A stretch of 64,000 nucleotides of DNA from Escherichia coli (lineage in GTDB: Bacteria; Pseudomonadota; Gammaproteobacteria; Enterobacterales; Enterobacteriaceae). Position 1 is the first letter of the stretch, and every line of letters begins with the position of its first letter. The position numbers were made by a program, and so were the translations under genes. The notes beneath the pieces are model-generated. The model did not search any database. It saw nothing but the letters and a program-made list of their open reading frames with translations, and had not been told where the DNA came from. The DNA lies in assembly GCF_003018255.1 (NCBI RefSeq), contig NZ_CP027440.1; one strand, 5' to 3'. Shown here piece by piece: positions 12,181 through 12,521 of this stretch.

Positions 12181-12414
12181 TTAGCGGAATTTACGTCGAT
12201 ACTCGCCTGGCGTCATCCCAAAGCGTTGCTTAAATACCGTTGAAAAATGACTCTGGTCGGAAAATCCCCAATGAAAGCCAATGCCTGCCAGTTTTTCATC
12301 ATCTGCGGCATGGCGAATCGCATCTGCACAAAAATCGAGACGACGGTTACGGATATATTGCGCGACTACCAAACCTTTATCGGCAAACTTTATCAGCGCG
12401 TAGCGCCTGCTGCT
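12181..12414 (-). pseudogene. feaR: 3' remnant of the AraC-family regulator feaR (about 77 C-terminal codons)
   Basis: Minus-strand frame reads ...KFADKGLVVAQYIRNRRLDFCADAIRHAADDEKLAGIGFHWGFSDQSHFSTVFKQRFGMTPGEYRRKFR*, the second AraC HTH, with an upstream stop at 12415-12417 and no N-terminal domain. Confidence 0.75.
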
Positions 12415-12521
12415 TTAGCGTTCGTTAGTGAAAAAGGTGAAACCTCGGTCGGTGAATTGCCTGCGCCGGGAAGCCTGTATTTTCAACGTTTTGGCGGCTT
12501 GAATATTGAACAGGAGGCGTT

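Follow-up and report, generated by a model that had tools for sequence, protein, structure and literature searches.

The feaRB-tynA-paaZABCDEFGHIJKXY region of Escherichia coli is known to vary between strains. Goldstone et al. (2016) described it as a heterogeneous region, flanked by ydbH-ynbE-ydbL and ynbC-ynbD-azoR, that some lineages have lost in part (PMC4951805). In the strain panel of Leimbach et al. (2017), the paa determinant was missing in a single B2 and a single E genome (PMC5422975). Elovaara et al. (2015) detected tynA in 7% of the UPEC isolates and in none of those of O157:H7 or from neonatal meningitis, noted that many clinical isolates are without it, and reported that a 33-kb region is missing in CFT073 (PMC4640556). 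In E. coli B, the cluster was lost via an IS3-mediated event (Archer et al. 2011; PMC3032704).

The stretch of DNA analysed here, referred to as the window, is 64,000 nucleotides long and agrees with this published variable region in chromosomal position (ydbH-ynbE-ydbL to pdxI/ynbA-D) and in the set of missing genes. Its gene order is ldhA, ydbH, ynbE, ydbL, a scar, paaY, pdxI (ydbC), ydbD, ynbABCD, azoR and hrpA. The published accounts (PMC4951805, PMC5422975 and PMC4640556) treat gene presence or absence, without the particular base-level junction found here (208 nt of feaR against the last 152 nt of paaX) or its AACATT context. The loss itself also differs from the other described cases: that of CFT073 type is larger (33 kb) and that of E. 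coli B involves IS3, whereas the window is short of 17,752 bp and has no IS at the join.

A BLAST comparison of the whole window with K-12 MG1655 (NC_000913 1,432,000-1,481,999) yields two blocks. Positions 604-12391 are collinear with K-12 as far as the feaR 3' part (97.9% identity), and positions 12389-13113 correspond to the end of paaX plus paaY, at 96.1%. The two blocks meet between 12388 and 12389, collinear with K-12, and since they abut in this way the match is not a chance resemblance. The join was placed by base-level three-way alignment of the window with the feaR and paaX sides of K-12 and of strain B27, two genomes with an intact locus that served as parents. The features of the scar region are as follows.

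12143..12183: ydbL/feaR hairpin between the convergent genes, retained, the left limit of the scar region
12181..12388, minus strand: feaR 3' remnant (pseudogene), the last 208 bp of feaR
12388/12389: deletion junction, joining K-12 NC_000913 position 1,446,585 to position 1,464,338 in the three-way alignments
12389..12540, plus strand: paaX 3' remnant (pseudogene), the last 152 bp of paaX
12522..13112, plus strand: paaY, intact, 196 aa, from its open frame and TIGR02287 score

From these alignments, the feaR-paaX join marks one chromosomal deletion of 17,752 bp, a reading to which we give a probability of about 93%. The segment absent relative to K-12 MG1655, NC_000913 1,446,586-1,464,337, holds the 5' 698 bp of feaR, feaB, tynA, paaZ, paaA-K and the first 799 bp (267 codons) of paaX. 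A preliminary description of this DNA had put the loss between feaR and paaY at about 20 kb; the gene set it named is correct, and the size is now revised to 17,752 bp. The same description took an in-frame stop at 12415-12417 as the limit of feaR and expected the breakpoint around 12415-12430. The stop is real, yet it does not delimit feaR, for it lies 27 nt past the join in paaX-derived DNA. Because this stop sits in antisense paaX sequence, the breakpoint had been estimated too far right, and the alignments move it about 30 bp further left, to between 12388 and 12389.

Both stubs are close copies of the ends of their parent genes. On the minus strand, only the C-terminal HTH part of feaR is left, as the preliminary description had proposed: 68 residues are 100% identical to K-12 FeaR 234-301, the DNA agrees at 205/208 nt, and the frame closes with a stop codon at 12181-12183 (minus strand). 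The plus frame that follows, previously thought to resemble a paaX tail, is exactly that. It consists of the last 49 codons plus the stop, with 49/49 aa identity to K-12 PaaX 268-316 and 151/152 nt at the DNA level, and alignment of 12389-12521 with K-12 confirms that this segment is paaX-derived. The stub also carries the ribosome-binding site of paaY, whose start at 12522 is preceded by AGGAGG and so has the normal site that had been noted.

FeaR is an AraC-type activator of tynA/feaB, and PaaX is a GntR-type repressor of the paa operons. Membership in the FeaR family was defined as a full-length match above the cut-off, with an N-terminal sensing/dimerisation domain and two HTH motifs. The feaR stub matches NCBIfam FeaR NF007243 at model positions 236-303 of 303 only, scoring 124.8 bits against a cut-off of 199; it comprises part of the DNA-binding domain alone, with neither the N-terminal domain nor a promoter. 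By this measure, it is a remnant and no functional member of the family. For PaaX, the definition was a full-length match above the cut-off that includes the N-terminal winged-helix DNA-binding domain. Here, the stub covers model positions 244-278 of 279 only in NCBIfam TIGR02277 (22.8 bits against 264.55), and by its model match it too is a remnant that falls outside the PaaX family. RefSeq annotation by PGAP marks both stubs as pseudogenes in 2014C-3338, 21F61 and 042. Across the join, a 97-codon chimeric open frame (12247-12540, plus strand) runs from an ATG in antisense feaR through the junction into the in-frame paaX tail and overlaps the paaY start. This predicted frame is probably a meaningless by-product of the join.

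The parental sequences are the same in K-12 and B27, namely ggcAAACATTcgg on the feaR side and atcAACATTtatc on the paaX side. The window junction reads ggcaaactttatc, which equals the product expected from an AACATT microhomology minus one A. This 6-nt match occurs in both feaR and paaX and lies within 1 nt of the join; when random joins were simulated within the feaR-paaY interval, an identical run of at least 6 nt within 1 nt of the join arose in 0.5% of cases. Read literally against K-12 and B27, the join is blunt, with 0 nt overlap, while the AACATT reading requires an extra 1-nt loss. The join keeps AAC-TT, one A short, and is thus no exact single-copy microhomology product. The fit to a clean microhomology join is imperfect, with one A absent from the expected AACATT product. 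An IS-mediated adjacent deletion is rejected, since the window junction has no IS element or IS end; a search of 12000-13200 found no IS ORF or terminal repeat.

Both flanks are collinear with the intact locus, and the join has no mobile element or site-specific recombination site, a combination expected of an illegitimate deletion. The two ends would have been fused by illegitimate recombination at AACATT or next to it, for instance through microhomology-mediated end joining or replication slippage. One base would have been lost during joining, and no mobile element would have taken part. From the junction sequence and the simulated joins, we infer that the ends were joined by slippage or through microhomology and that 1 nt was lost on the way.

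The identical junction is present in 258/5,426 complete E. coli genomes (~5%), among them EAEC 042, isolate 624 and many avian pathogenic O78:H4 and related strains. Where the scar carries PGAP annotation (042 NC_017626 EC042_RS27765/EC042_RS08085; 2014C-3338; 21F61), the junction is base for base that of the window, and both stubs are labelled 'incomplete; partial in the middle of a contig; missing N-terminus'. The annotated boundary lies one base to the left, between window positions 12387 and 12388, a consequence of annotating from proteins.

Other strains carry other scars. The paaABC genes are present in 3,147 of the 5,426 complete genomes and missing from 42% (2,279), and 558 complete genomes have no match to window 12000-13200. 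An ST131-type scar occurs in 564 genomes, including O25b:H4-ST131 strains such as p11B. Like the window scar, it fuses a feaR 3' stub to the end of paa at a short repeat with no IS at the join. The repeat, however, is a 7-nt GCTATCC common to both parents instead of AACATT, and 252 bp of feaR is kept compared with 208 bp in the window. In addition, the ST131-type loss takes in the whole of paaX and the 5' end of paaY, leaving the last 329 bp of paaY, whereas the window keeps paaY intact, and ydbA is present downstream. These different breakpoints indicate an event independent of the window scar. Larger, IS1-bounded deletions extend from feaR or ydbL into ynbB in strains B2C and TUM14664. Judged from these joins, the feaR-paa locus is a recurrent site of gene loss, with at least four different scars.

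Three other explanations of the missing block were weighed against deletion, and all are very improbable. If the short state were ancestral, K-12-like strains would have gained the 17.7-kb feaB-tynA-paa block by insertion. The locus does behave as accessory, with paaABC in just 3,147 of the complete genomes, and it has been described as a heterogeneity region 'inserted between core genes' (PMC4951805). Yet the 3' ends of feaR (208 bp) and paaX (152 bp) kept in the window are perfectly collinear with the full genes, and an insertion would need to have completed two broken genes on opposite strands at one stroke, each with precisely the part it lacked. Other lineages are truncated elsewhere in the same genes, as in ST131, where 252 bp of feaR runs into the final 329 bp of paaY, and such differing truncation points fit independent deletions from an intact ancestor. 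With both genes cut short yet collinear with their intact counterparts, insertion in K-12 is rejected, and the preliminary description was right to place the deletion in the window lineage; we hold an insertion to be highly unlikely. Translocation of the cluster to another place in the same genome is equally hard to credit. A search of the 64-kb window with the deleted segment gave no hit, and paaA was found in none of the 60 best-matching scar-carrying complete genomes, in which a chimeric query made of window 12000-13200 and 800 bp of K-12 paaA hit the scar alone. This query matches one place per genome in scar carriers and typically three in genomes with an intact locus. Among the 60 are the two genomes nearest to the window, 2014C-3338 (100% identity across 1.2 kb) and 21F61 (99.4% across 25 kb), so that the absence of paa beyond the locus is drawn from near-identical complete genomes together with the 64-kb window. 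Least probable of all is an assembly error (a contig collapsed or wrongly joined), given that the same junction recurs in 258 genomes that many laboratories finished independently and on many platforms.

With deletion as the preferred reading, it can still be asked whether this junction arose once or repeatedly, as a hotspot deletion at AACATT in separate lineages. Recurrence would suit the occurrence of the scar in backgrounds as distant as 042, which we take to be phylogroup D, and avian O78:H4 strains, the divergence of roughly 4.4% between the flanks of the window and 042, and the other scars that mark the locus as deletion-prone. Against it stand the idiosyncratic 1-nt loss, identical in the window, 042 and isolate 624, and the scar core, where window and 042 have seven derived SNPs in common when K-12 and B27 serve as reference. 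The SNPs of positions 12259, 12280 and 12352 are common to the window, EAEC 042 and isolate 624. Window and 042 differ at only 3/451 positions in the stub region 12100-12550 (0.7%), compared with 49/1,113 in the flanks 11550-12099 and 12551-13113 (~4.4%; Fisher p = 6e-5 versus the stub region). Repeated origin is thus unlikely, and we read the window scar as having a single origin, after which it was inherited, spread through homologous recombination, or both. The mosaic of a conserved core between divergent flanks would then have one of two causes: either homologous recombination later spread the deletion allele, or incoming DNA that could not cross the 17.7-kb heterology replaced the flanks.

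Divergence along the region is uneven in other respects. Over 11550-13113, the window and 042 differ by 0.7% in the scar core and by 4-6% in ydbL and paaY. The window paaY allele is unusually far from those of K-12, B27 and 042, with a dS of 0.10-0.15 compared with 0.05-0.07 among those three. From this pattern, DNA to the left and right of the scar may have been imported by recombination. A broader proposal holds that homologous recombination carried the deletion allele across deep E. coli lineages and that paaY was kept for a use other than phenylacetate catabolism. The near-identity of the stub region between divergent flanks would speak for its first part and the intact paaY frame for its second, but as a whole it is unlikely. 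If it were true, spread of the allele would fit a favoured loss of the H2O2-producing amine oxidase and the paa pathway.

PaaY is a hexapeptide-repeat thioesterase acting on a by-product of the paaA-K pathway. In the window, its frame is intact at 196 aa, with 9 aa differences from K-12 and 96.1% nucleotide identity, and it scores 364.7 bits on the NCBIfam TIGR02287 equivalog model (residues 3-195; cut-off 319.6), which makes it a member of the family. The open frame is also intact in all scar genomes among the best 60 listed. Its functional context is gone, as the pathway genes are absent from the window and related genomes, and going by gene content paaY is now orphaned from both its pathway and its native promoters. 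A crude consensus scan found no sigma-70-like site on the plus strand from the hairpin to paaY, the regional hits being no higher than those of shuffles. We infer that the retained gene is a poorly expressed leftover. Pairwise dN/dS for paaY is 0.14-0.17 versus K-12, B27 and 042, and the window-private changes number 10 synonymous and 6 non-synonymous; the counts are small, and the changes may predate the deletion or have come in by recombination. These substitution data are too little to tell selective retention from recent orphaning.

The hairpin at 12143-12183 has a 17-bp stem with a folding energy of -30.9 kcal/mol (z = -8.4 versus shuffles), and from this predicted fold it is presumably a bidirectional terminator. 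It stands between ydbL transcription and paaY. Pair 12152:12174 takes three forms, with C-G shared by the window and 042, G-C by K-12 and B27, and A-T seen in isolate 624; such compensatory change suggests that the stem is under selection.

Gene decay continues elsewhere in the window. At 13113-13135, between paaY and pdxI, the window lacks the autotransporter pseudogene ydbA and ynbG, which take up ~9 kb in K-12. Directly 3' of the paaY stop come ~13 nt resembling the ydbA 3' end and then the last 9 nt of ydbA with its stop. The paaY-pdxI gap looks like a second deletion scar, and since B27, in which paa is intact, has the same ydbA/ynbG arrangement, this loss is independent of the paa deletion. 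Further on, ydbD (14261-15617) has decayed into several short ORFs, with ~985 bp missing compared with K-12; the gap places window 15156-15171 against 44004-44990 of the K-12 locus (L007), and in the closest genomes PGAP calls ydbD frameshifted or internally stopped. Similarly, ynbD (18975-20366) has an internal stop at ~19872-19874 that leaves ORFs at 18975-19874 and 19908-20366, and it is an annotated pseudogene in 2014C-3338 and 21F61. Together, the feaR, paaX and ydbD stubs and ynbD amount to unusually many pseudogenes in one stretch. At the left end, window 1-603 has no K-12 match, where K-12 has the end of the Rac prophage; the closest genome, 21F61, has sitA of the sitABCD iron/manganese transporter at this position, adjoining uspF and ompN.

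In an intact strain, TynA converts 2-phenylethylamine to phenylacetaldehyde, FeaB oxidises this to phenylacetate, and PaaK forms phenylacetyl-CoA. Ring epoxidation and cleavage (PaaABCDE, PaaG, PaaZ) and beta-oxidation-like steps (PaaF, PaaH, PaaJ) follow. The deletion would remove this whole route from 2-phenylethylamine to central metabolism, together with both regulators, FeaR and PaaX; PaaI would be lost as well. Because TynA, FeaB, the Paa enzymes and both regulators are lost, the strain should, on this pathway knowledge, be unable to grow on phenylacetate or 2-phenylethylamine.

The deletion is an ordinary and common strain-to-strain polymorphism, already represented in the literature and in RefSeq annotation; the present analysis adds only the base-level junction, its microhomology context and the counts of scar types. 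The paaY gene and the two stubs found here should not be taken as evidence of a paa pathway. For the window strain and ~5% of complete E. coli genomes, the prediction is no use of phenylacetate or 2-phenylethylamine and no periplasmic amine oxidase TynA. Beyond correct annotation, the importance of the finding is slight, and the locus serves to illustrate recurrent independent gene loss in E. coli.
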